Notes: a model not told the origin generated them from the letters alone. Shown: positions 13,127 to 26,475, numbered from the stretch's first letter. The stretch: DNA of 64,000 nt from Bacillota bacterium (GCA_030705805.1 JAUZPY010000001.1:8073-72072), one strand, 5' to 3'. Numbers and translations are program-made.

Positions 13127-14641
13127 TTATTTAGAAATGGTAATTTTATTTTCTGTTTTCCCTGCTGTCCAATTAACGTTAAATCCTAAACCTTCTGCTG
13201 CATATCTAAGCGGAATATAGGTCCTTCCAATACTTGCATCCACATACGCACTTGCATCCATTTTGTGCCTTACACCATTTACCCAATACTCAGATTTTCC
13301 AATCGGAAATTCAATTTTATATCCCGGTAATTCGCCAATCGCAATTTTATTTTCGCTATCCCACATAACACTTGCGCCCATTGCGGCTAAACATTCGCGG
13401 AAAGGATACATTGTACGATTATTTACAGTTTGCAGCTTTAATGTAAGTTCAACTTCTTTATTATTAAAAAATAATTTTATCGGTTTATTGCCTAAAGTTG
13501 TACTAATAGTTTTTGTTCGATTGCTATCTGTTGCCCATACATCGCCTGTTGAATTTATAAAAACATAATACGATGTTGAATATGATACTGATATGTCTTT
13601 AACAAAAGTAACGCTGCCAAAATCATAAACAGGATTATATTTACCATTTTTTAAATTAAGATAAATACCTTCTTGGTTAAAGTAAAAGATAGTTCCGCCA
13701 ATTGTTATACAATTACCCACTTTATTTGATTGCATATCTAATAAGCTAAGCCCTTTTTCCCAAAAAATGTTGCCCTCATAAGCTTTACCATCATTAGAAA
13801 CAGCATAAAATGAATTTCCTGCTGAAGTGTCCCAAGCAACTGATTTAATGTTCTCTCCCTGATATTTTGTAGTGCCTAAATCATGGGAACTTATGTATAG
13901 TTGATTTGATGTATTAATTATTCCTACAGCTCTTGAACCGAGAAAAACACCATTTTCTTTCTTTACATTTGAAACAACTTTTGTCGGCATATCCGGTTTT
14001 AAATAATATAAATCCCCATTATTTTTCAAAGCATAAGCGTTTCCGTAGCCTGAATAAACTGCGTATACGTCAGACATCACAAATGTAGTAGTAACTTCAG
14101 ATGTTCCATAATAATCCAATTCAATGCTATATAAGTTATTATCATTTAAAACAACATATTTTTTTTGGCCACCAGATGCAAAGCTCTTTACGTTGGAAAG
14201 AACCTTTTTGCTTTCACCCTCGCTTTGAAATTCAGGATCACAAACAATATTGCTTTTATTGTCAATATAGCATAACGGATCCAAATTTATTATTTCTTTA
14301 ACAGAAATGGGATAATTATTAACTTTTACTTCTCTCTCATCGGACTTCAAAGTTGTCACAACCGACATTGTTCCATTCGACTTAATCATATATAATGTTT
14401 CCGCCGCTACATCCCACTTACTTATTATTGCAGTTACATCGGTTTCAATAAATTTTTTGCTCGAAGCAATAACATCAGTAGTTAAATAAACATCCCCCGC
14501 CCCAGTCAAAACAGCTACATTATAATCTCCATAGCTAAAACTAGCAATATCTTTTACAGGCAATTCAGCTGCATTTACTAATATAACAGTACTAATCATC
14601 GCTAACATTATAAATGTTAAAGTAAAAATAATTTTTTTCAT
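13127..14641 (-). CDS. Secreted protein with a repeated beta-rich N-terminal region and a C-terminal copper-amine-oxidase-N1-like (stalk) domain
   Basis: 504 aa with an N-terminal signal peptide (MKKIIFTLTFIMLAMISTVILVNAAE), recurrent ~40-aa units (…YAV…GD.Y…) suggesting a propeller or repeat fold, and a C-terminus (YPFRECLAAMGASVMWDSENKIAIGELPGY…IPLRYAAEGLGFNVNWT) matching the Cu-amine-oxidase N-terminal-like domain common in clostridial wall proteins. Confidence 0.5.
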   Translation of the reverse strand: MKKIIFTLTFIMLAMISTVILVNAAELPVKDIASFSYGDYNVAVLTGAGDVYLTTDVIASSKKFIETDVTAIISKWDVAAETLYMIKSNGTMSVVTTLKSDEREVKVNNYPISVKEIINLDPLCYIDNKSNIVCDPEFQSEGESKKVLSNVKSFASGGQKKYVVLNDNNLYSIELDYYGTSEVTTTFVMSDVYAVYSGYGNAYALKNNGDLYYLKPDMPTKVVSNVKKENGVFLGSRAVGIINTSNQLYISSHDLGTTKYQGENIKSVAWDTSAGNSFYAVSNDGKAYEGNIFWEKGLSLLDMQSNKVGNCITIGGTIFYFNQEGIYLNLKNGKYNPVYDFGSVTFVKDISVSYSTSYYVFINSTGDVWATDSNRTKTISTTLGNKPIKLFFNNKEVELTLKLQTVNNRTMYPFRECLAAMGASVMWDSENKIAIGELPGYKIEFPIGKSEYWVNGVRHKMDASAYVDASIGRTYIPLRYAAEGLGFNVNWTAGKTENKITISK

Positions 14642-14834: not shown

Positions 14835-15782
14835 TTATTCCATATAACTTATCGATGTATCAATGCCAATGGTACTTGCTTCGCCATTCCATGTTATACC
14901 TATATCAAATGCTTTTGCAATATCACGTAGCCTAAAGTAATTATTGCCGTTAATCGTATAGGCAGATAATTGTGCTTCCTGACCGTCTATATATATTTTT
15001 GCAGTAGAAAGAACTGCATTTTGTTTATTTGAGTCTGCATTCACTTCCATTTCGCCGCCGACCGCCGTGTATATTTTATTTGATATAAGGTTGATAGCAT
15101 TTTTTGAACCATCCCATGAAACCTCAAACTGCTTATCAGTACCACTTACTACCTTCGCAAGATCACGAAGCTTAAAATAATTATTGCCGTTTATCGTATA
15201 AGCTTCAAACATAGTCTTTGTGCCATTTACCAAAATCTTACTAGAAGTCGGTAAGGCCGGTACATTTACAATAGCATTGTCATCTGCATTTTGCTGCAAA
15301 TTATCCATGCCTTCAACGATATCAATAAATACTACCAGACTAAAATCCGAATATGATATCTCCAAAGAATAATGCCCAGCCTTATCAAATTCTATTGTAT
15401 AGCCTGTATCATAATGTTGGGGTATTACCGGGCCATCTGGGATAATGACCTTTCCGGATTCCTTAACAATAGAAGAAATTGGTTTTCCGGATTCATCTGA
15501 ATATTCTTCATTTCCATAATTAATCTTAATATTGCTGAATATAAAGTCGCAAGTCATTTTTGCATGAACTTGAGCCTTAATGTTAAAATCTGTGTCAACG
15601 CCCTCCGTGGACTCTAACACATTTGTTACAGTAAATCCCTGACTGTAGCCCGCAGCTTGCTCTAAACAAAACTCTTTTTCCCCGGCAGCAAGAACTGATA
15701 CTACAGACAGTTGCATAACTGCTGCAGCAACTAATATGGTTAACATCAACTTAATTATTTTTTTCATTTCAATTCTCCTCAT
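14835..15782 (-). CDS. Secreted protein with two tandem copper-amine-oxidase-N1-like domains
   Basis: 315 aa with a signal peptide and two C-terminal repeats containing AYTINGNNYFKLRDLAKV and AYTINGNNYFRLRDIAKAF, the signature of the CuAO-N1 stalk domain. Confidence 0.55.
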   Translation of the reverse strand: MRRIEMKKIIKLMLTILVAAAVMQLSVVSVLAAGEKEFCLEQAAGYSQGFTVTNVLESTEGVDTDFNIKAQVHAKMTCDFIFSNIKINYGNEEYSDESGKPISSIVKESGKVIIPDGPVIPQHYDTGYTIEFDKAGHYSLEISYSDFSLVVFIDIVEGMDNLQQNADDNAIVNVPALPTSSKILVNGTKTMFEAYTINGNNYFKLRDLAKVVSGTDKQFEVSWDGSKNAINLISNKIYTAVGGEMEVNADSNKQNAVLSTAKIYIDGQEAQLSAYTINGNNYFRLRDIAKAFDIGITWNGEASTIGIDTSISYME

Positions 15783-16665: not shown

Positions 16666-17517
16666 ATGAAAACCACAGTCTATGCAAATGCTAAGGTGAA
16701 TCTTACCCTGGATATTACAGGAAAAAGAGAAGATTCTTATCACACAATAAGAACCGTAATGCATAACATTGAACTATCAGATGAAATTGAAATATCTTTC
16801 ATAAAAAAGGGCATTAGAATTACTTCGAATTTATATTATCTGCCTTCAGGTCCTAATAATATTGCTTATAAGGCTGCCGAAGCTTTTTTAAAAGAAATTA
16901 ATATGGCTCAAGGGCTAGAAATCAGGCTTCACAAAAAAATCCCCGTAGGCGGAGGATTAGGCGGTTCCAGCACTGATGGTGCGGCAGTCCTTCGAGGGTT
17001 AAACAACTTGTTTTCTAATCCCATCAGTGAAAAGCGACTGCTCCAAATTGCGGCATCTCTTGGCTCAGATATGCCCTTCTGCTTAACCGGAGGCGCCGCT
17101 TTATGTGAAGGCGTTGGCGAAATAATAACCCCTCTTCCCGATTTTTGCGGAGAAAGTATCCTGATTGTTAAGCCTCCGTTTTCATTAAATACAAAAGTAA
17201 TGTATGAGCAAATCGATGCCTTCGGAATAGCTAATCATCCTAAAACAGATGAAGTAGTAGAAGCCTTTAGACAAAGTAACTTTAAGGAAGTCACCAGTAA
17301 CCTTTTTAATGTATTTGAACCTGTAGCAATTGCCATTCAGCCTATTATCGGCGTAATTAAAGAAAAACTGTTAAAGTTTGGTGCTATCGGAGCCCTTATG
17401 AGCGGAAGTGGTTCATCCGTTTACGGAATATTCAAAGATGAAGCTTCTGCTTTTGATGCAGAAGAAAAACTGAAGTTTGAAAAATTTGATGTCTATTTTT
17501 CAAAGCTGTGTAAATAA
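16666..17517 (+). CDS. ispE: 4-diphosphocytidyl-2-C-methyl-D-erythritol kinase
   Basis: 283 aa with the GHMP kinase motif (PVGGGLGGSSTDGAAVL) and an IspE-like N-terminus (KVNLTLDITGKREDSYH). Confidence 0.9.
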   Translation: MKTTVYANAKVNLTLDITGKREDSYHTIRTVMHNIELSDEIEISFIKKGIRITSNLYYLPSGPNNIAYKAAEAFLKEINMAQGLEIRLHKKIPVGGGLGGSSTDGAAVLRGLNNLFSNPISEKRLLQIAASLGSDMPFCLTGGAALCEGVGEIITPLPDFCGESILIVKPPFSLNTKVMYEQIDAFGIANHPKTDEVVEAFRQSNFKEVTSNLFNVFEPVAIAIQPIIGVIKEKLLKFGAIGALMSGSGSSVYGIFKDEASAFDAEEKLKFEKFDVYFSKLCK

Positions 17518-17518
17518 T

Positions 17519-17548
17519 AAAGCCCCGCATATGCGGGGCTTTATTATT
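17519..17548. terminator. Bidirectional rho-independent terminator between ispE (+) and the SLH gene (-)
   Basis: GCCCCGCAT-ATGCGGGGC perfect palindrome with T-runs on both sides. Confidence 0.8.
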
Positions 17549-17552
17549 TTGT

Positions 17553-19823
17553 CTATTTATCTGTTCCGAATACCTTTATTACCCTTACTGTTCCGTTGTT
17601 AATCGTATCTGTGTAAAGGCCGATGCTACTTACATTTTTATTAGCAATATCATCTAACTTAATAATTTGCCAATCCTTCCCTACTTGCTTGTAGACAACA
17701 GTAACATCTTCATCCATTCGGTAAACATTATCATTCATCTTGATTTTTGTGTTTGTATATTCCTGTATTTCTTTGCCGGTTTCTGCTTCGTTCAGCGTCT
17801 TCATAGCTTTCATTTTGCCGTTATATATTATAGCCATAACAGCAGAACCTTCTGAATAGCTGTAACCGAAGGATGTGGTATAACTGTTTTCACCGCTGTT
17901 TGAAACTATATCATATGTTGCAGAATATGCAAGACTTATTCCTCCGTCTTTTATTTCTGAATCAGACAGTATTCCGTATGTATATCCGCTGTAAGTCGTA
18001 TCTTTGATATACAGTACAGCAATGTCTTTAAGGCCATTTGCATATTCAACATGAATTACTTGTTTATCTGTAAGGCTTGAACCTGTAATGTCTTTAAGAT
18101 TTACCTTTTGAACCATTGCTTGTGTGCCGTCTTCCAAGTATACAAGTTCAAGTATTGAATAATTCTGCTGGAACTCGCATCCGGCATATGAAGGGATGCT
18201 CTTATCAAAAGTTCCTTCAAGAGGATTCTTTGGAGCAAGCTTCAAAGACATTATTCCGTCGCCCTGGTTTTCGATATATACAAATGAGCCTATATACTTA
18301 GTATAATCTGTATCTTTATATTCCTTATCAGTCCTATAGGCTACTTCCTTGCCTGAAGCAAGCATTATGTTGGCATAATATTGTTTTTCGCCTTTTGCTT
18401 CATCATCATCATTTGCATATGAAGTATATATGCTTAGCAGAACACCCATATCACTGAGGGTCTGGCCGTCTAAATCCACTACATCTACAACAGATCCGTC
18501 ATTGCCGAAAAGAAGAGTGATCCTGTCATTTATCTGGAATGAACCGGCAGTATCGTCAAGCTTTTGCTTAGCTGTAACAGAAAAACTTGAATAGGTAGTT
18601 CCCGAAAGAGTAATGCCGGTTAAATTATCCTTGGATGGCAGGGCTTTTTCATAGATACCCGTTACTTTATCCGAATATACATAAAGTCTGTTAGTTACAT
18701 CATTATAATATACAACATCAAACTTTTCAATATCGGTAAGGAGTGCGGCTTCTCCATCCCTCGTTACATTAACATTGTCAAGTTTTCCAAAGAAAGTGTT
18801 AACCTGAGAATAGTTTGAAGTAATGGTATAAGGACCGTCAAGCTTCTTTTCTTCTATGAAAATGTAATCATCATATATTTTAATTGTGCTGCCCGATAAG
18901 AGAGTGGAATAAACAGCGGAATAATTGGTTTTTGCTCCTTTGTAATATACAATCTTATTTCCATCAACATCAACCAAACCTGATTCAAGGGTCTCCATTT
19001 TATCAGCATAAGCAGCATTTAATGTGTATGTTTTAACATCCTGGCTTACTTTCTGAACCATGTCAATTTCATTTGACTTATTGACCCAAATTGTAACCTT
19101 CATTCCAATATAAGAATCAATGTCAGCAAGACCTTTTTTATAGGTACCCCCTGAGGTCATAACTTCATCAACTGCAATTGATGCGTTGTTTGCCGTATTG
19201 CCGTAAACAACGACGTTTTCAACCTTAGTGAGAGATGATACACTGCTGTTAGTACCATTCTTAGCTGTCAAGGCATTATTCAGAATATATGCTGCAACTT
19301 CTCTGGTAATAACATCGCTATTATTGAAAGTTAAACCTTCAGTTAAGTCAAGTTCAGCAGCCTTTGTAATGTAATCGGCAGGCCAGTTTGTTCCAACGTC
19401 AGAAGCAGAATAGCCAAGCATTCTTATTACTACTGTAATAGCCTGAGCATATGTAATTTCATCATCGGGAGCAAACCTGCCGTCAGGATAACCTGTTATA
19501 AGACCTAGTTCTGCAGCCTCATTTATATATCCTACTCCCCAATAATTTGAAGAGACATCAGAAAATACTTCGGTGTTTTTTGAAACTGCCTTGTCCTTAT
19601 TTCCCGACATTATAACAATCAGTTTAGCAAATTGGCTTCTTGTAAGTGATTTAGTTGCTCCAAAGGTACCGTCTCCATATCCTGAAAGGATACCCAAATT
19701 AGTTAGATTATTTATAGCATCTGCATACTTGCTTCCCGTGGAAACATCCGAAAAAGAAGCCATAGAAGTGGATGTGAAAAGAAGAAATGCACTAAGCGCT
19801 ATTGCCATAATTCGTTTTATCAT
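17553..19823 (-). CDS. S-layer-homology (SLH) domain cell-wall protein
   Basis: 756 aa with a signal peptide and three N-terminal SLH repeats (FSDVSTGSKYADAINNLTNLGILSGYGDGTFGA..., FSDVSSNYWGVGYINEAAELGLITGYPDGRFAP..., NWPADYITKAAELDLTEGL). The ~550-aa C-terminal region has no recognised domain. Confidence 0.8.
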   Translation of the reverse strand: MIKRIMAIALSAFLLFTSTSMASFSDVSTGSKYADAINNLTNLGILSGYGDGTFGATKSLTRSQFAKLIVIMSGNKDKAVSKNTEVFSDVSSNYWGVGYINEAAELGLITGYPDGRFAPDDEITYAQAITVVIRMLGYSASDVGTNWPADYITKAAELDLTEGLTFNNSDVITREVAAYILNNALTAKNGTNSSVSSLTKVENVVVYGNTANNASIAVDEVMTSGGTYKKGLADIDSYIGMKVTIWVNKSNEIDMVQKVSQDVKTYTLNAAYADKMETLESGLVDVDGNKIVYYKGAKTNYSAVYSTLLSGSTIKIYDDYIFIEEKKLDGPYTITSNYSQVNTFFGKLDNVNVTRDGEAALLTDIEKFDVVYYNDVTNRLYVYSDKVTGIYEKALPSKDNLTGITLSGTTYSSFSVTAKQKLDDTAGSFQINDRITLLFGNDGSVVDVVDLDGQTLSDMGVLLSIYTSYANDDDEAKGEKQYYANIMLASGKEVAYRTDKEYKDTDYTKYIGSFVYIENQGDGIMSLKLAPKNPLEGTFDKSIPSYAGCEFQQNYSILELVYLEDGTQAMVQKVNLKDITGSSLTDKQVIHVEYANGLKDIAVLYIKDTTYSGYTYGILSDSEIKDGGISLAYSATYDIVSNSGENSYTTSFGYSYSEGSAVMAIIYNGKMKAMKTLNEAETGKEIQEYTNTKIKMNDNVYRMDEDVTVVYKQVGKDWQIIKLDDIANKNVSSIGLYTDTINNGTVRVIKVFGTDK

Positions 19824-19836
19824 ATTTTGCCTCCCG

Positions 19837-21024
19837 TTATTCTGATCTTAAAGCTTCTATTGGACTAAGTTTAGAAGCCTTCCTAGCCGGGTTAAGTCCA
19901 AAGAACAAACCAACAGCCATGGAATAAACAAGTGATACCACTATAACCCACAATGTAGGTTTAGCGGCTATTCCGATAATTTTTCCGGCGATAACGGCAA
20001 CTATTACACCAAGTACAATTCCCATAATGCCGCCAAACAAACTTACCGAAGTTGCCTCAACGAGGAATTGGAGCAGTATACTGCTTCTTTTTGCTCCTAT
20101 AGCTTTTCTGATACCTATTTCCTTGGTTCTTTCGGTAACAGATACAAGCATAATGTTCATAATTCCTATGCCGGCGACCAAAAGCGAAATGCCTGCAATT
20201 CCCGCAAGAACGCCTGAAAGCATAGTTGTCATTTCGTTAAGCTTATCAAGCATTTCCTGCATGTTTACTACAGTATATCTGTCTGAATCACCGTATATAT
20301 CATACATAAATTTTTTAGTTATACTCATAACAGAATCAATACTGTTAACGTCTTTAGCTATTAATGTAAAACCGGTAAGAGCCCCTGTACCCAAATTGTT
20401 TACTGCCGTAGTGTATGGAACAAGAGCCATATCATCAGAAGAGTACTGGGCAATAGTATCGGTTTGCTTTTCCATTACTCCGACAACGGTAAAAGGCAGA
20501 CCATTGACCTTTATTGTTTTACCTATTGATGCCTGAACGCTGCCGAAATAAGTTAATGCATTATATTCACCTATTACAATAACTTTAGAAGCATTTTCTA
20601 CATCAACGCTATTTATAAGTCTCCCAAGCTGGGTAGTTTTATCCGTAGACAAATCATAATATTCGTTAGTGCCTGTTACTGGAGTGGTACCGTTACTACC
20701 TCCGACTCTTAGTGTTGCACTGGTTGAATTTTTCGGAATAAATCCCGTTATAAGGTCACAATTATCCCACATTAAATCTTCAACATCGTCGTAATCAAAA
20801 GTTCTCGTCTGATATGAACGTTTGGCAGTGGCTATAACCTGAGTAGTGCCAAGGGAATCAAAAGATTCTGTTACTTTTGACGTTGCCCCTTGAACCAGGC
20901 TTACGAGAATTATAACTGCACAAACGCCAATTATGATTCCAAGCATTGTTAAAAAGCTTCTGAGTTTGTTTGATATAATACTTTCCCAGGCCATTTTGAC
21001 TGCAGATAAAAGAATCATTCGCAA
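19837..21024 (-). CDS. ABC transporter permease of the FtsX/MacB family
   Basis: 395 aa with an N-terminal TM (NKLRSFLTMLGIIIGVCAVI), a large extracytoplasmic domain and a C-terminal FtsX 3-TM bundle. It overlaps the upstream ATPase gene by 10 nt. Confidence 0.85.
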   Translation of the reverse strand: MRMILLSAVKMAWESIISNKLRSFLTMLGIIIGVCAVIILVSLVQGATSKVTESFDSLGTTQVIATAKRSYQTRTFDYDDVEDLMWDNCDLITGFIPKNSTSATLRVGGSNGTTPVTGTNEYYDLSTDKTTQLGRLINSVDVENASKVIVIGEYNALTYFGSVQASIGKTIKVNGLPFTVVGVMEKQTDTIAQYSSDDMALVPYTTAVNNLGTGALTGFTLIAKDVNSIDSVMSITKKFMYDIYGDSDRYTVVNMQEMLDKLNEMTTMLSGVLAGIAGISLLVAGIGIMNIMLVSVTERTKEIGIRKAIGAKRSSILLQFLVEATSVSLFGGIMGIVLGVIVAVIAGKIIGIAAKPTLWVIVVSLVYSMAVGLFFGLNPARKASKLSPIEALRSE

Positions 21025-21710
21025 ACCACCTCGCTATCCACATCTACATCTCTGGTTATTTTACCGTCTTGTATTCTGACAATTCTTTTTGCCTGTCTGG
21101 CTATATTGTTGTCATGCGTAATAAGCACTATTGTATTGCCTTCACTATGTAATTCTTTAAGCATAACCATTAATTCAGCGCCGGTCTTGCTGTCCAATGC
21201 ACCTGTCGGTTCATCAGCCAGTATCAGCGGAGGGTGTCCTGCCAACGCGCGAGCAATTGATACTCTTTGCTGCTGACCACCTGATAATTCTTTAGGCATA
21301 TGTTCGCTTCTTTCTGCCATACCAACACGCTCTAATGCTTCCATGGCCATCTTTTTGCGTTCAGGTAATTTGATGCCCCGATAAATAAGCGGAAGTTCCA
21401 CATTTTCCCTGGCAGAAAGTTTGGGAAGTAAATTATATTGCTGAAAAATAAACCCTATCGTGCGGTTTCTTATTAAGGCTTGCTCATCATCTGAAAGGTT
21501 ACTTACATTTTTCCCATTCAAATAATACTCGCCTTCAGTCGGAACATCCAGACATCCAATCATATTCATAAGTGTAGATTTGCCGGATCCCGAAGGTCCG
21601 ATAATAGCCACAAATTCATGGGGATGAATGTGCAGGTTGATACCATCCAATGCCCTTACCTCTGTATCGCCCATCTGGTAAATTTTATATAAATCTTTTA
21701 TTACTATCAT
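21015..21710 (-). CDS. ABC transporter ATP-binding protein (MacB/LolD-like)
   Basis: 231 aa with Walker A (GPSGSGKSTLMNMIG), the ABC signature (LSGGQQQRVSIARAL) and Walker B (ILADEPTGALD). Confidence 0.9.
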   Translation of the reverse strand: MIVIKDLYKIYQMGDTEVRALDGINLHIHPHEFVAIIGPSGSGKSTLMNMIGCLDVPTEGEYYLNGKNVSNLSDDEQALIRNRTIGFIFQQYNLLPKLSARENVELPLIYRGIKLPERKKMAMEALERVGMAERSEHMPKELSGGQQQRVSIARALAGHPPLILADEPTGALDSKTGAELMVMLKELHSEGNTIVLITHDNNIARQAKRIVRIQDGKITRDVDVDSEVVCE

Positions 21711-21734
21711 GGTACACCCCCCTTTTTTAGGCTA

Positions 21735-23726
21735 TCACTTGCTTGAACTGCTGTTCTTGCTGCCGGAACTGCTGCTTGTTGTGCTTCTGCTATAGCCGCT
21801 CGAACTGCTTCTCATGCCGCTATAACCGCCCATTCCGCCTTCCATACCGCCATAACCGCCATTCATTCCACCCATGCCGCCATTCATGCCTGTGGCATTA
21901 AGACCTGTTTTTTTACTATTGGTGGCTGAAGATGTATCAGCATTATCATTTTCAGCTAAGTACACTTCGGCTGTCTGAGAAAGTCCGCTTAAAATAGCCA
22001 TATACATATCATTCGATACGCCGGTGGTTACTTTAACAGCAGTAAATCCTTCTGGTGCCTTTGCTTTAATTCTTTTCTGAATGGTAGCGTTTATATCCTT
22101 TTCCGATTTAGCCGTTTCGTCTGAAGCAGTATTTGTACTCTTTGAAGAAATTGCTGCTGATTTGAAAGAAGCGGATTCAGTCTGTTTTGAGCTACCCGCA
22201 GAAGCAGCATTAGTTGCTGTATCATCTGCTGCAGTTACTCCGGTATTTGTACCGTTTTTTACATAAACATAAGATTCACCTTTAATCTTCGTTATGGCTG
22301 AAATAGGAACGCAAAGTGCATCTTTAGCGCTTTGGTATACAATTTCGGCAGAAACATTCATGCCTGAACGAAGTTTTCCATAATCATCTATTACAACCTC
22401 TACGTCATATTCCGCAACACCGTTAGAGGATGTACCTTCAGTGGCAACTTTAGTAACTTTACCTGTAAACAACTGATTTTCGAGAGCGTCGGCAGTTACT
22501 TTTACCTCTTGTCCGACTGAAACTTTATTGATATCGGTTTCGTCAGCGGAAAAAGTGAATTTCATTTTAGACATATCTGCAACGACCATCAAAGCAGTTG
22601 AGTCAGAGCTTGTGCCGATAGTGTCACCCTTTTTATAGTTCTTTGTAATTACCGTTCCACTGATTGGAGCTGTTATATTATAGTCATCCAGCTTATCCTT
22701 AGCATCTTCAAGAGAAAGCTGCTGGTCATTATATTCAATATCTACCGTTTTTTTCTTCTCCACAAAGTCGGTATCATCAATTGTAAAAAGTACCTCACCC
22801 TTCTTTACGGTAGTGCCGTTCTTTAAACCGGGAGCAATATAATCCACTTCACCGCTGATCTTGGGAGTAATCGAAACAGAGTCATTGAATGAAATGGTAC
22901 CGGATTTGGGTGATTCCACGTTGCCGGAACTCGTAGTAATTGTTGCGCTGGCAGATGTATCGTTTAAAGCTATGTCAGCGTTTTTAATTGTTATTTCAAC
23001 GTTATAAACAACAGAACCGTTTGAATAGCCGGAAGAAGCGGAGCTTTTATATGTAACTGTTCCGTTTAATGAATACATAGACGGGAACAAGTAAACCTTG
23101 GCAGTATCACCTATCTGTATCTTTCCACATTGAGCTGCGTTAAAAGGTATCGTTGCAATTACCGTTGAAGTATCCTGAACCATGCCGCAGCTTTGATTTG
23201 CCGAAACATTATCACCTTTTTTAAGAGTAAATCCGCTTACAACACCATCACTTGCAGCTTTAATTGTATACTTTGCTAAGGTCTTATTATACTCTGAACT
23301 ATCAAGATATGTCTTGTTATCAAGCTTATACTTTTTAAGAGAATCCTGAGCCTTCTCTATTGACTTGTTCTGCTGATCATGGTCAATAACATAAAGCAGA
23401 TCATCTTTTTGAACCGTATCGCCTTCTTCGTAATTACACTGAGTAATTTCACCGTTTACCAAAGGCACTATTTCGTACCGTTCATATGGCTCAATTGTAC
23501 CTGAACCGGATACCGTAAGCTCAAGTGTCTTTACTACAGGCTTCGTAGTCTTAATGGTAGTCTTCTTATCTGTAGCATTACCTTTAGAAAACCAAAAGCA
23601 GGTTCCTGAAATCAAAGAGATAACAACTATTATGGAAGTAATTGATATCCAAAGTTTCTTTTTACGTTTTTTCTTAATCAAATCCGGAGTATCTCCGTTA
23701 GCAGTCTTAGTTTTCAGTTTCATCAC
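21735..23726 (-). CDS. HlyD/MacA-family membrane fusion (periplasmic adaptor) protein, long form with a low-complexity Gly/Met/Ser-rich C-terminal tail
   Basis: 663 aa with a basic cytoplasmic N-terminus, one TM (LWISITSIIVVISLISG), and biotinyl-lipoyl and beta-barrel adaptor-like segments. Its C-terminus reads NATGMNGGMGGMNGGYGGMEGGMGGYSGMRSSSSGYSRSTTSSSSGSKNSSSSK. It is first in an operon with the ABC ATPase and FtsX permease. Confidence 0.75.
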   Translation of the reverse strand: MMKLKTKTANGDTPDLIKKKRKKKLWISITSIIVVISLISGTCFWFSKGNATDKKTTIKTTKPVVKTLELTVSGSGTIEPYERYEIVPLVNGEITQCNYEEGDTVQKDDLLYVIDHDQQNKSIEKAQDSLKKYKLDNKTYLDSSEYNKTLAKYTIKAASDGVVSGFTLKKGDNVSANQSCGMVQDTSTVIATIPFNAAQCGKIQIGDTAKVYLFPSMYSLNGTVTYKSSASSGYSNGSVVYNVEITIKNADIALNDTSASATITTSSGNVESPKSGTISFNDSVSITPKISGEVDYIAPGLKNGTTVKKGEVLFTIDDTDFVEKKKTVDIEYNDQQLSLEDAKDKLDDYNITAPISGTVITKNYKKGDTIGTSSDSTALMVVADMSKMKFTFSADETDINKVSVGQEVKVTADALENQLFTGKVTKVATEGTSSNGVAEYDVEVVIDDYGKLRSGMNVSAEIVYQSAKDALCVPISAITKIKGESYVYVKNGTNTGVTAADDTATNAASAGSSKQTESASFKSAAISSKSTNTASDETAKSEKDINATIQKRIKAKAPEGFTAVKVTTGVSNDMYMAILSGLSQTAEVYLAENDNADTSSATNSKKTGLNATGMNGGMGGMNGGYGGMEGGMGGYSGMRSSSSGYSRSTTSSSSGSKNSSSSK

Positions 23727-23811
23727 AAAACCTCCCTATTAATTTAAATCACAGTATTAATGATATCAATTATTTATGTATATTTTGAAATTAAATTATG
23801 AATAAAATGTA

Positions 23812-23843
23812 AATATTAAAAAGACAAGCTACCATAGCCTGCC
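23812..23843 (-). terminator. Probable rho-independent terminator downstream of pncB
   Basis: On the minus strand, CAGGCTA-TGG-TAGCTTG (one mismatch) followed by TCTTTTT. Confidence 0.4.
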
Positions 23844-23852
23844 TTTTTAATA

Positions 23853-25304
23853 TTATTTTGAATAATGTTCAAGCATTTCGTTCTTAATGTGCCACAGGGA
23901 TTTTGACAAGTCAACATAATATTTATGCGGATTTTCAAAACGTAGAACCTCTTCCCAAAGAGTTTCAATTTGAGCCATACAATAATTTTTGATTTCATTA
24001 AGCGGCTTGCTATCATATACACATTGCCCGTTTTTAAAAATAGGCTTTAATAGTTTTTTAGCGGTATAGTCTGTAACTTCTTTCTTTTTCCAAGTTTCGA
24101 CAGGGTCGAATAATACATATGGCTCATTTTCATCTATTTCTTCATTGTGAAGTGTAACCACATCACCTATAGCCATCCCTGTTTCGTTAGAAAAAAGCCT
24201 GTAAACCTGTTTGAAGCCCGGAGTGGTAACTTTGGTTGTGTTCTCACTTATTTTAATCCTTGGAATAATATTTCCGCCTTTTTCTACGGCTACAAGCTTA
24301 TACACACCGCCAAAAACCGGAGAAGAACTTGCGGTAATTAACCTTTCGCCTACTCCGAATGAATCAATTTTTGCACCCTGCATGATTGTATCTCTGATAA
24401 TATATTCATCCAATGAATTTGAAACTACAATTTTACAATCTTCAAAACCGGCATCATCAAGCATTTTACGCATTTTTTTCGATAAGTACGTTATATCTCC
24501 GCTGTCTATTCTGACACCCTTCGGACGGTACCCGGCAGGAACAACAACTTCATTAAAAACTTTAATTGCATTCGGAAGACCTGACTTTAATACGTTATAT
24601 GTATCAACTAAAAGAGTACAATCCTGAGGATAACTTTTTGCATAGGCCTTAAATGATTCGTATTCCGAATCAAACATTTGTATCCAGCTATGAGCCATAG
24701 TTCCAAGTGCAGGTATGCCAAACAGCTTGTCCGCAATAGTGCAGGCAGTTCCCACACATCCGGCAATATATGCTGATCTGGCGCCATATATTGCGCTGTG
24801 ATATCCATGAGCTCGTCTTGAGCCAAATTCCATTACCGCTCTGCCCTGAGCTGCCCTAACGATTCTATTTGCTTTTGTTGCTATAAGAGACTGGTGATTT
24901 ACAGTTAATAGAATCATGGTCTCTACAAACTGAGCCTGTATAGCCGGACCTCTAACAATAACAATAGGCTCTCCCGGAAATATAGGGGTTCCCTCTTCCA
25001 TAGCCCATACATCACAGCTAAATTTCATTTCGGAAAGATAATTTAAAAACTTTTCACTGAAAATGCCTTTGTTCCTTAAATAGCTAATATCTTCTTCATC
25101 AAACTTTAACTTTTTGATATATTCAATTAATTGTTCTGTTCCCATCATAAGAGCATATCCGCCATTGTCAGGTATAACTCTGAAGAACATATCAAAATAT
25201 GCAATTGATTCTCCCATGCCATTTTCCATATAGCCATTAGCCATTGTAAGCTCATAAAAGTCGCAAAGCATGGTATAATTATTGTTATCCTTCCAAACTG
25301 TCAT
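23853..25304 (-). CDS. pncB: Nicotinate phosphoribosyltransferase
   Basis: 483 aa with the N-terminal MTVWKDNNNYTMLCDFYELTMANGY and overall NAPRTase family architecture. Confidence 0.9.
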   Translation of the reverse strand: MTVWKDNNNYTMLCDFYELTMANGYMENGMGESIAYFDMFFRVIPDNGGYALMMGTEQLIEYIKKLKFDEEDISYLRNKGIFSEKFLNYLSEMKFSCDVWAMEEGTPIFPGEPIVIVRGPAIQAQFVETMILLTVNHQSLIATKANRIVRAAQGRAVMEFGSRRAHGYHSAIYGARSAYIAGCVGTACTIADKLFGIPALGTMAHSWIQMFDSEYESFKAYAKSYPQDCTLLVDTYNVLKSGLPNAIKVFNEVVVPAGYRPKGVRIDSGDITYLSKKMRKMLDDAGFEDCKIVVSNSLDEYIIRDTIMQGAKIDSFGVGERLITASSSPVFGGVYKLVAVEKGGNIIPRIKISENTTKVTTPGFKQVYRLFSNETGMAIGDVVTLHNEEIDENEPYVLFDPVETWKKKEVTDYTAKKLLKPIFKNGQCVYDSKPLNEIKNYCMAQIETLWEEVLRFENPHKYYVDLSKSLWHIKNEMLEHYSK

Positions 25305-25310
25305 TATAGT

Positions 25311-25613
25311 TCATCCTTCCGGCTTAATCTTTTCAAGCGCATCCTCAAGCCAATATTCACCAATATCAATAGCTTTATACAAGCCGTCTCTTTCAGCCTG
25401 TTTTATAACTCTTTCCTTTTCGGACCCTGTATTGGTAATGAGTTGTATTGTAACTGAATCGGCAATTTCTTCGCCGCTTACCATCGTAGAATGATTAATA
25501 ATGAACTTAACTATATATCGATCTTTAGGATCACCAAAGTAAAGTGTATTTCCTCCTCTAATAAAAGGTTTGCCATTATATATAAGATATTCGTTCTTTT
25601 CTTTTTTAGCCAT
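25311..25613 (-). CDS. Hypothetical 100-aa protein co-transcribed upstream of pncB
   Basis: Clean ORF ending 7 nt before the pncB start. No recognisable motif and no TM segment. Confidence 0.5.
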   Translation of the reverse strand: MAKKEKNEYLIYNGKPFIRGGNTLYFGDPKDRYIVKFIINHSTMVSGEEIADSVTIQLITNTGSEKERVIKQAERDGLYKAIDIGEYWLEDALEKIKPEG

Positions 25614-25737: not shown

Positions 25738-25744
25738 GCTAATT

Positions 25745-25854
25745 GCAGAGTAGATTTTTACGCGTGCGTTTTAAGCGCAGAGTGCCGCCTGTACGGAGAG
25801 TTGACTGGCGGACGAATAGCATTTGCTGACGGTGAAAAAATCGCATCTCGCTGC
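25745..25854 (+). ncRNA. THF (tetrahydrofolate) riboswitch of the folT-motif class
   Basis: GCAGAGUAGAUUUUUACGCGUGCGUUUUAAGCG...GUGCCGCC...GGCGGAC...GGUGAAAAAAUCGCAUCUCGCUGC. This matches the conserved AGAGUAGAU / CGCGUUAAGUG / ...GCAUCCGCUCC core of known THF riboswitches (e.g. the Eubacterium siraeum aptamer). The GAUUUUU/AAAAAUC and GCCGCC/GGCGG helices fit the three-way-junction architecture. It lies upstream of an ECF S-component gene. Confidence 0.6.
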
Positions 25855-25911
25855 TTATACTAATACTATACGTAGCGTTATCTCTGTAAATTTATTTGCG
25901 GAGGTTTTTTT

Positions 25912-26475
25912 ATGGGAATTATCGAAAAGTTCAGGCAATCATCCAAGGAATTAAAAGACACAAGAACCTTAGTAAAGTGCGCAATGTTTATTGCTCTTTA
26001 CGTTGCCCTTAAAATGCTGCGTCTTCAGATTGATGTGGACAAGGCACTGTTTAATTTGGAATTTTTGGCCATAGCATTTTCCGGTGCCTTGTTCGGTCCG
26101 GTTGCAAGCATTATTGTAGGCTGTGCCGGAGACTTGCTTCACAGCCTCACAGGAACTTTGTCGGGCGGATTTAATTGGGGGTTCACCATTAATAACGCTG
26201 TTTCCGGCCTTCTTTACGGATTAATATTATATAAAAACATGTCTATAATAAGATGCGTTATAGCCAAGTTTATTGAAATAGTTGTTATTTCATGGTTTAT
26301 GACAAACATCTGGCTGGTTATGAGTTTTGACATTAATGCAATAATGCCTATGGCAATTTCAAGAGCTCCTATAAAGCTTGGTGCATCTTTACCTATTGAA
26401 ATGGCGATATTCATAATTTTAGTTTTAGTACTTAAACCTGTACTTCAAAAAATTGAGCCTCAAAGAAAATTATAA
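25912..26475 (+). CDS. folT: ECF transporter S component, predicted folate-family transporter
   Basis: 187-aa 5-6 TM protein typical of ECF substrate-capture components. Substrate assignment rests on the upstream THF riboswitch. Confidence 0.65.
   Translation: MGIIEKFRQSSKELKDTRTLVKCAMFIALYVALKMLRLQIDVDKALFNLEFLAIAFSGALFGPVASIIVGCAGDLLHSLTGTLSGGFNWGFTINNAVSGLLYGLILYKNMSIIRCVIAKFIEIVVISWFMTNIWLVMSFDINAIMPMAISRAPIKLGASLPIEMAIFIILVLVLKPVLQKIEPQRKL

Follow-up and report, generated by a model that had tools for sequence, protein, structure and literature searches.

The locus considered here, at 17553-23726 in a 64,000-nt stretch of the genome of a Bacillota bacterium (GCA_030705805.1, JAUZPY010000001.1:8073-72072; the whole stretch is referred to below as the window), encodes on its minus strand an HlyD-like adaptor, a MacB-type ATP-binding cassette (ABC) ATPase, an FtsX-type permease and a protein of 756 residues carrying an S-layer homology (SLH) domain. 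Relatives of the SLH gene lie directly beside adaptor-containing pumps, and the SLH protein is, in our judgement, very probably tied to the pump in function. The operon most likely encodes a four-component, adaptor-dependent MacB-type exporter suited to a single-membrane envelope with an SLH-binding wall polymer, and the pairing, found in more than 100 loci, suggests that single-membrane bacteria give MacB-type pumps a wall partner. MacB-type pumps, membrane fusion proteins (MFPs) and fused-dimer adaptors are known; of the wall-anchored SLH partner family and its core module we found no earlier description.

Linkage of the SLH protein to adaptor-containing pumps

In order to avoid generic SLH proteins, homologues of the SLH protein were sought using only its non-SLH part (residues 196-756). 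A word-indexed search with this region gave 47 clusters at 90% identity, and an exhaustive HMMER scan gave 568 clusters (50% identity) at E ≤ 1e-3, 321 of them at E ≤ 1e-10. All six of the homologues that were looked up individually, with identities ranging from 46% down to 24%, are encoded directly after an adaptor-containing pump, and their flanking genes are unrelated. One genome was scanned for each GTDB species, which provided 80 loci, nearly all from uncultured gut or rumen Clostridia, the two cultured carriers being Sinanaerobacter chloroacetimidivorans BAD-6 (Anaerovoracaceae) and Lachnospiraceae bacterium MD329. Seven of these loci had no upstream DNA; in all of the 73 that could be assessed, the SLH gene is immediately preceded by a pump gene of like orientation, at identities of 24-55% and with differing flanks, and the gap between pump and SLH gene has a median of about 17 nt.

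The order adaptor-ATPase-permease-SLH was found in 59 of the 73 loci and truncated forms of MacB-type arrangements in six. In another four, the SLH gene follows a different engine, consisting of an MMPL transporter, a membrane protein of 683 residues with xxxLxxG repeats and an adaptor of 412 residues. Variant operons of this MMPL/HAE type were seen in L005, L006, L031, L039, L043 and L058, and the xxxLxxG repeats of their 683-residue protein are heptads in a YhgE/Pip-like sequence rich in coiled coil. Family members of 1050 and 1867 residues likewise follow MacB permeases. One locus, L003 (ENA ERZ27245369, k141_37287), encodes an SLH protein and a permease identical to those of L002 and a more divergent ATPase, and has genes for a sugar-binding protein and a two-component system in place of the adaptor gene; either recombination produced this variant or the assembly is chimeric.

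The linkage was also approached from the adaptor. Three of three adaptor homologues (35-38% identity), picked regardless of SLH genes, belong to operons in which a gene for an SLH protein of 760-790 residues follows the permease gene. Retrieval by adaptor homology gave 80 metagenome loci, 34 of which could be assessed on both flanks, and an SLH gene stands directly beside the pump in 31 of these. It follows the permease gene, as in the window, in 16 of the 34, and in 15 a shorter SLH-like gene, encoding about 350-390 residues, comes directly before the adaptor gene, while the permease gene is followed by none. This arrangement (type B) was seen in L094, L095, L097, L098, L104, L111, L113, L119-L121, L126, L154, L160 and L167, with a tandem pair of the short genes in L121. 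In the type B partners the SLH domain is divergent (Pfam 17-35 bits) and is accompanied by a single copy of what we term the core module, a block of about 135 residues that in the window protein spans residues ~322-455 (18459-18860, minus strand) and is the most conserved part outside the SLH domain. Comparison of the type B and window proteins with hhalign (probability 96%, E=1.5e-9) aligned window residues ~323-390, and the joint alignment covers about 135 residues. Across all of these systems, the common denominator is an adaptor, an SLH anchor and a core module. A reading of the window made earlier from its sequence alone (the sequence-only reading) had asked whether the SLH gene always follows the permease: conservation of the pairing is found in both directions, in 73 of 73 loci starting from the SLH protein and in 31 of 34 starting from the adaptor; the type B gene precedes the adaptor and the gene of the MMPL type comes after it.

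The distance matrices of all four proteins correlate with r~0.8 over 45 complete loci, which indicates that the set is inherited as a unit. It is very improbable that the SLH protein is an ordinary surface or S-layer protein with no tie to the pump, placed there by chance. These genomes do encode many SLH proteins, and some of the loci have unrelated SLH genes nearby; the adjacency, however, is reciprocal and nearly universal over more than 100 diverged loci with differing flanks and three gene orders, and the gaps, of −23 to +30 nt, have the size usual for subunits whose translation is coupled. Recent spread as a mobile cassette is argued against by the identities of 24-55% and by the chromosomal contexts. 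On the strength of synteny, chance adjacency is effectively refuted. We found no literature linking SLH proteins to MacB, HlyD or FtsX pumps in a search that covered subscription journals only slightly, so that an earlier description is possible; this negative and the two-way synteny strongly support the claim, made in the sequence-only reading, that these genes together make up one functional unit, of under-described architecture.

The MacB-type engine and the tandem adaptor

Searches with hidden Markov models (Pfam, NCBIfam) upheld the HlyD, MacB ATPase, FtsX permease and SLH identities that had been assigned from the sequence alone. The ATPase (21015-21710, minus strand; 231 residues) matches ABC_tran in Pfam (7.6e-35) and the nucleotide-binding domain (NBD) portion of the MacB model NF007826 (1.3e-81), as well as LolD (2.7e-68); its score lies under the full-length curated cut-off because NF007826 spans the fused protein. 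The permease (19837-21024, minus strand; 393-395 residues, depending on the start) contains MacB_PCD (PF12704, 2.5e-37, residues 23-233) and FtsX (PF02687, 2.6e-18, residues 276-388), and a phmmer search of PDB sequences matched it to MacB 5lil (8e-57), Spr0695 5xu1 (4e-47) and E. coli MacB 5nik (5e-46). The transporter is thus a bona fide MacB-type ABC system with the hallmarks of type VII, namely an FtsX permease with four transmembrane (TM) helices and an ectodomain between TM1 and TM2, a MacB/LolD-like NBD and an adjacent MacA-like adaptor.

The adaptor (21735-23726, minus strand; 662-663 residues) matches HlyD_D23/HlyD_3 (1e-26) and Biotin_lipoyl_2 in Pfam, and scores 171.6 bits against TIGR01730 RND_mfp, for which the cut-off is 94.9. 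In the AlphaFold2 (AF2) model, with a predicted local distance difference test score (pLDDT) of 76, an N-terminal TM helix (residues 19-43) is followed by two units, each of the form lipoyl/short-hairpin/lipoyl/beta-barrel (residues ~86-265 and ~266-475), and then by a membrane-proximal domain, so that the anchor, membrane-proximal domain, beta-barrel and hairpin-split lipoyl domain expected of an MFP are all present. The two halves align to each other with 26% identity (E=2e-6), the sequence contains two Pfam HlyD stretches and four RND_mfp stretches, and the top Foldseek matches of the model are MacA in the MacAB-TolC complex (9qgy_G and 5nik_D, E~1e-14). The adaptor is therefore a natural tandem, or fused-dimer, MFP. 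The adaptors also show DevB-family similarity. An insert (residues 493-539) and a Gly/Met-rich tail (residues 592-662) are disordered in the model; the tail, encoded at 21738-21950 on the minus strand and containing GMNGGMGGMNGGYGGMEGGMGGYSGM, is conserved in the adaptor family with the consensus GMxGGxxGGMxGGMxGGM. It resembles the C-terminal GGM repeats of GroEL.

Of the systems already described, MacAB-TolC from E. coli and A. actinomycetemcomitans shares with the window the MacB_PCD and 4-TM FtsX permease, the MacB/LolD-like NBD and the MacA-like adaptor. It differs in that NBD and permease have here a gene each, the adaptor has short hairpins and consists of two fused units, and there is neither TolC nor an outer membrane, the distal partner being instead an SLH protein with a C-terminal beta-domain array. 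The premise of the sequence-only reading that MacAB-type pumps need TolC was too strong, given that YknWXYZ of B. subtilis and Spr0693-0694-0695 of S. pneumoniae, both adaptor-dependent MacB-like pumps of monoderm Firmicutes, work without an outer-membrane factor (PMC8277102, PMC5768738). These two resemble the window system in their adaptor/NBD/permease trio and single membrane, although Spr0693 and YknX are single-unit adaptors rather than tandem ones. YknWXYZ gives a precedent for a fourth component (PMC8277102), but YknW is a 4-TM membrane protein and not a wall protein, and in the literature searched no SLH or other wall-anchored partner is described for either pump. The internal duplication of the adaptor has its likeness in DSY0927 of Desulfitobacterium hafniense, described as a 'fused dimeric' adaptor (Zgurskaya et al. 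2009) of a Clostridia ABC-type system, a comparison that we make by description rather than by sequence; the reviews that cite DSY0927 do so only to argue for adaptor dimers and mention no SLH partner (PMC4446572, PMC4338810).

Structure and family of the SLH partner

The fourth gene (17553-19823, minus strand) is labelled at NCBI only as encoding an 'S-layer homology domain-containing protein' of a Bacillota metagenome-assembled genome (MAG). Its product comprises a Sec signal peptide (residues 1-23), an SLH triplet (residues ~24-190) and an all-beta array (residues ~196-756), with a mass of 73 kDa and about eight folded domains. SLH, at 3e-30, is the only Pfam match at E ≤ 0.01 and is limited to the first ~190 residues, which bears out the earlier estimate of some 550 unassigned residues at the C-terminus (we find ~560 without a Pfam match). 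The SLH domain (19254-19754, minus strand) has three motifs, ending in TRSQ, TYAQ and TREV, that form a pseudo-trimer; R62 and R174, the arginines of the TRxx ends of the first and third motifs, are invariant across 40 homologues. The triplet resembles those of Sap (B. anthracis) and SpaA (P. alvei), but the remainder of the protein is of no solved S-layer crystallisation domain type, and, unlike the strongly expressed monocistronic S-layer genes, this gene is operonic with a pump.

The AF2 model of the SLH protein (pLDDT 86.6; predicted template modelling score 0.50) suggests that the array consists of about seven small beta domains resembling the oligonucleotide/oligosaccharide-binding (OB) fold. 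In the conservation profile, the core module equals the SLH domain itself, and it has the motif LxGP...V.RDG..A.L.DI..(F/Y)DVVYYN..T..LYVY.DKVTGIYEKA.PSK. Most members of the family have ~745-790 residues, with the matched region beginning near residue 200, and the longer homologues repeat the core module, the repeated stretches mapping to residues 123-264 of the query. Those of 900-1867 residues (P0002-P0006, P0191, P0198, P0247 and P0303) have duplicated N-terminal beta domains or up to four or five core modules. A search of a set of 5.8 billion proteins with the core-module profile returned 23 proteins, all fragmentary. Against PDB sequences, the profile of the whole C-terminal part gave no match; that of the core module gave a borderline one, to a collagen adhesin (E=0.0016), which we judged spurious. 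A comparison of the C-terminus with the adaptor family by hhalign showed no relationship (probability 0.1%), and we gave up the notion that the OB array might derive from a barrel split off from an adaptor.

The fold also bears on what the protein is not. Neither Pfam nor the AF2 model shows a TolC-like barrel, a porin or a hydrolase in it; fold comparison gave no TolC-family exit duct; the C-terminus contains no large membrane beta-barrel of the OmpM/SlpA kind; and there is no coiled coil with a CHAP, NlpC-P60 or LytM domain, since Pfam finds only SLH and the model is all-beta beyond it. The protein is therefore not a member of the TolC, OmpM or FtsEX-partner families. It belongs instead to a family of SLH-OB pump partners defined by a Sec signal, an SLH domain, a core module and adjacency to an adaptor-containing pump, all of which it has. 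The sequence-only reading had offered it as a wall- or S-layer-spanning partner of the pump, and this part is favoured; it is not a TolC-like duct, however, but a string of OB-like beta domains.

Two other readings of the protein, both raised from the sequence at the outset, fare less well. Outer-membrane proteins are fastened to the wall by SLH domains in Negativicutes and Deinococcus, and the organism might similarly be a diderm Firmicute, with an outer layer to which the SLH protein is an OmpM/SlpA-like tether or exit protein. The C-terminus is nevertheless a chain of small soluble beta domains with no porin-like or other large membrane beta-barrel, and the named relatives are all Clostridia (Oscillospiraceae, Lachnospiraceae, Anaerovoracaceae and Ruminococcus-like MAGs), with no Negativicutes, Halanaerobiales or Limnochordia among them; this reading is unsupported, and we consider it exceedingly improbable. 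The protein could, on the other hand, itself be what the pump exports: the MacB-type exporter encoded in the same operon would be dedicated to bringing it, as cargo, to the cell surface, and MacB does export some peptides, such as the enterotoxin STII. The evidence makes this quite improbable: 39 of 40 relatives have an ordinary Sec signal peptide, a 73-kDa protein of about eight domains far exceeds the ~10-30 Å adaptor pore of Spr0693 (PMC5768738), and family members reach 1867 residues.

Proposed mechanism and its alternatives

In the mechanism that we propose, the ATPase and permease would form a MacB-like dimer, in which ATP hydrolysis moves the extracytoplasmic domain by mechanotransmission. 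In MacB, hydrolysis drives the ectodomain, which pushes substrate from the outer face of the membrane into the six-fold tube of the adaptor. Since the adaptor of the window is a fused dimer, a trimer would give a six-fold ring, and with it presumably a short tube, as in MacA and Spr0693. The SLH protein would be exported by Sec and held non-covalently, through its SLH triplet, on pyruvylated secondary cell-wall polymer, and its core module and OB-like array would attach to the far end of the pump, on the side of the wall, most probably to its adaptor, tying the pump outlet to the wall and/or passing expelled substrate through it. The adaptor is favoured as the point of contact because the partner follows an adaptor even when the engine is of the MMPL type, and the core module is the likely interaction element. 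In the model of Spr0693-0695, the adaptor apex lies ~154 Å above the membrane, which is about the thickness of the inner wall zone, and in its authors' proposal the peptidoglycan receives substrate from the tube (PMC5768738); at such a height a wall-bound protein could reach the adaptor. Analogy with MacB, DevBCA and MMPL transporters points to an amphiphilic peptide, or to a lipid or glycolipid, as the probable substrate. On this proposal, in which the exporter reaches across the wall and the SLH protein, tethered there, serves it as an accessory subunit docked in this specific manner, we regard the chances as evenly balanced.

Several observations weigh against it. The functional evidence is genomic context and predicted structure, most of the carriers being uncultured, and we infer contact between the SLH protein and the pump from these two sources only. 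The fold of the C-terminal array is not that of a channel, none of the relatives of the array has a known function, and mirror-tree partial correlations do not favour the adaptor over the permease as the partner of the SLH protein. Three of the 34 loci retrieved through the adaptor, or ~9% (L100, L153 and L170), have no SLH neighbour, so the pump can exist without one; at L100 and L170, which were inspected, there is no alternative wall-anchored partner either. (L100 has a MarR-family regulator upstream, as in drug-efflux systems, and L170, at 27% identity, has a gene for a trypsin-like protease after the permease gene.) Four of the 73 loci retrieved through the SLH protein (L023, L030, L040 and L045) have the order adaptor-permease-SLH with no ATPase gene, and at these either the NBD is encoded elsewhere or the pumps are degenerate. 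Finally, no csaB was found among the open reading frames (ORFs) scanned in the window, the rest of the genome lying outside the scan, so that this result is uninformative genome-wide.

Alternatively, the pump might extract a glycolipid, a lipid-linked glycan or a lipopeptide and pass it to the OB array, which would then be a wall acceptor or chaperone rather than a structural subunit. LolCDE, which passes lipoproteins to LolA, and the lipid exporters MmpL and DevBCA offer analogues, and OB folds often bind oligosaccharides and other ligands. Such a role would suit the pairing of the SLH-OB family with MMPL/HAE-type transporters of the resistance-nodulation-division (RND) superfamily, whose characterised members export lipids, and the DevB-family similarity of the adaptors; the absence of adjacent regulators from most of the loci also fits a housekeeping function in the envelope. 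We nevertheless found no ligand-binding site, no lipid-binding fold and no glycan-related genes consistently linked to the operon, and we think this alternative doubtful, if worth serious consideration. It overlaps with the docked-subunit proposal, from which sequence alone cannot separate it.

A further possibility is that nothing is transported, and that ATP hydrolysis switches the wall-anchored SLH protein by FtsEX-like mechanotransmission. FtsEX, with PcsB, CwlO or EnvC, resembles the window system in combining a MacB-superfamily ABC module with an extracytoplasmic, wall-directed partner, such as the operon also encodes, and the MacB/FtsX superfamily does have non-transporting members (PMC5768738, PMC5985334). 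FtsEX systems, however, have no adaptor, whereas one is always present here; their partners have coiled coils as well as a hydrolase or LytM domain, none of which was found in the SLH protein; and the SLH-OB family also accompanies MMPL transporters, which are not mechanotransmitters of the FtsEX type. A mechanism of this kind is accordingly improbable.

The docked-subunit proposal also has a more general form, which we put forward as possible but rather doubtful: that the SLH-OB proteins are a hitherto unrecognised kind of 'wall factor', corresponding in single-membrane cells to the outer-membrane factor and serving both MacB-type and MMPL-type exporters. They would dock on fused-dimer adaptors and provide a continuous, gated route from the membrane through the layer of peptidoglycan and secondary polymer, which, if true, would explain why the adaptors of Gram-positive bacteria keep their hairpin tips. 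Any analogy with the TolC family would be a functional one only, in that a single distal family serves ABC (MacB-type) and RND-superfamily (MMPL-type) pumps through adaptors; there is no similarity to TolC-family factors in sequence or fold, no alpha- or beta-barrel and no membrane for the protein to sit in.

Reviews of efflux pumps treat the role of adaptors in Gram-positive bacteria as unresolved, call the conservation of the hairpins 'puzzling' and speak of 'a significant gap in knowledge' (PMC4338810, PMC4446572). With a wall-anchored partner there is a concrete hypothesis as to where the adaptor leads in cells that lack an outer membrane. The partner is conserved in hundreds of protein clusters from gut and rumen Clostridia and accompanies two classes of transporter, so that a large uncharacterised family of SLH proteins is given a context and probably a role. 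The pairing bears on tolerance of antimicrobial peptides or drugs, and on how the envelope is built, in gut anaerobes that are abundant but little studied.

Gene boundaries, flanking signals and neighbouring genes

All four ORFs were found, tightly packed on the minus strand at 17553-23726, as first read. For the adaptor, an ATG start at 23723 is likelier than the GTG one codon before it. A gap of 24 nt containing the ribosome-binding site (RBS) AAAGGGGGG separates the adaptor and ATPase genes, and one of 13 nt, with a GGGAGG RBS, separates the permease and SLH genes. The latter gap was confirmed as originally given, as was a 10-nt overlap of the ATPase and permease genes, which applies if the permease starts at TTG 21024; the likelier start, ATG 21018, reduces it to a classic 4-nt ATGA overlap with the ATPase stop. 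A good RBS is present at this junction as at the other two.

The terminator next to ispE and the promoter region upstream of the adaptor gene, both proposed in the sequence-only reading, have their counterparts in the signals found. Between the convergent ispE (plus strand) and SLH (minus strand) genes lies a terminator-like, apparently bidirectional hairpin (17512-17549; a 17-pair stem with seven GC pairs and T-runs on both sides), which forms the downstream boundary of the operon and is common to the two genes. At the other end, a terminator-like hairpin on the minus strand (23812-23854; a 20-pair stem and then a T-run) at the end of the upstream nicotinate phosphoribosyltransferase (NAPRTase) gene marks the upstream boundary. 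It is followed by an AT-rich, promoter-like stretch containing a candidate sigma-70-type promoter (23741-23789, minus strand), identified by consensus match only, which reads either TTCAAA-18-TATCAT with an extended TG or TTGATA-17-TAAATT, and downstream of this by an AGGGAGG RBS. No terminator-like site was found at the permease-SLH junction, and it is very plausible, judging from this arrangement, that the four genes form one transcript.

The surrounding window is ordinary chromosome of a spore-forming gut bacterium of the Clostridia, with genes for SpoIVA, a germination protease, UvrABC, PcrA, RuvB and TypA. Just beyond ispE are two genes (13127-14641 and 14835-15782, both on the minus strand) for secreted proteins whose C-terminus carries a Cu_amine_oxidN1 ('copper amine oxidase N-terminal-like') domain, and proteins with this domain recur near the pump in L001 and L002. 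On the other side, a tetrahydrofolate (THF) riboswitch (Rfam RF01831, 68.8 bits; 25744-25855, plus strand) precedes an ORF for a multi-TM protein of 187 residues (25912-26475, plus strand); the counterpart of this protein in L001 has energy-coupling factor (ECF) S-component Pfam domains, which makes a subunit of a folate-family ECF transporter the probable identity. The NAPRTase gene has immediately upstream of it an ORF of 100 residues (25311-25613, minus strand) with no Pfam match, which occupies the same position in L001.

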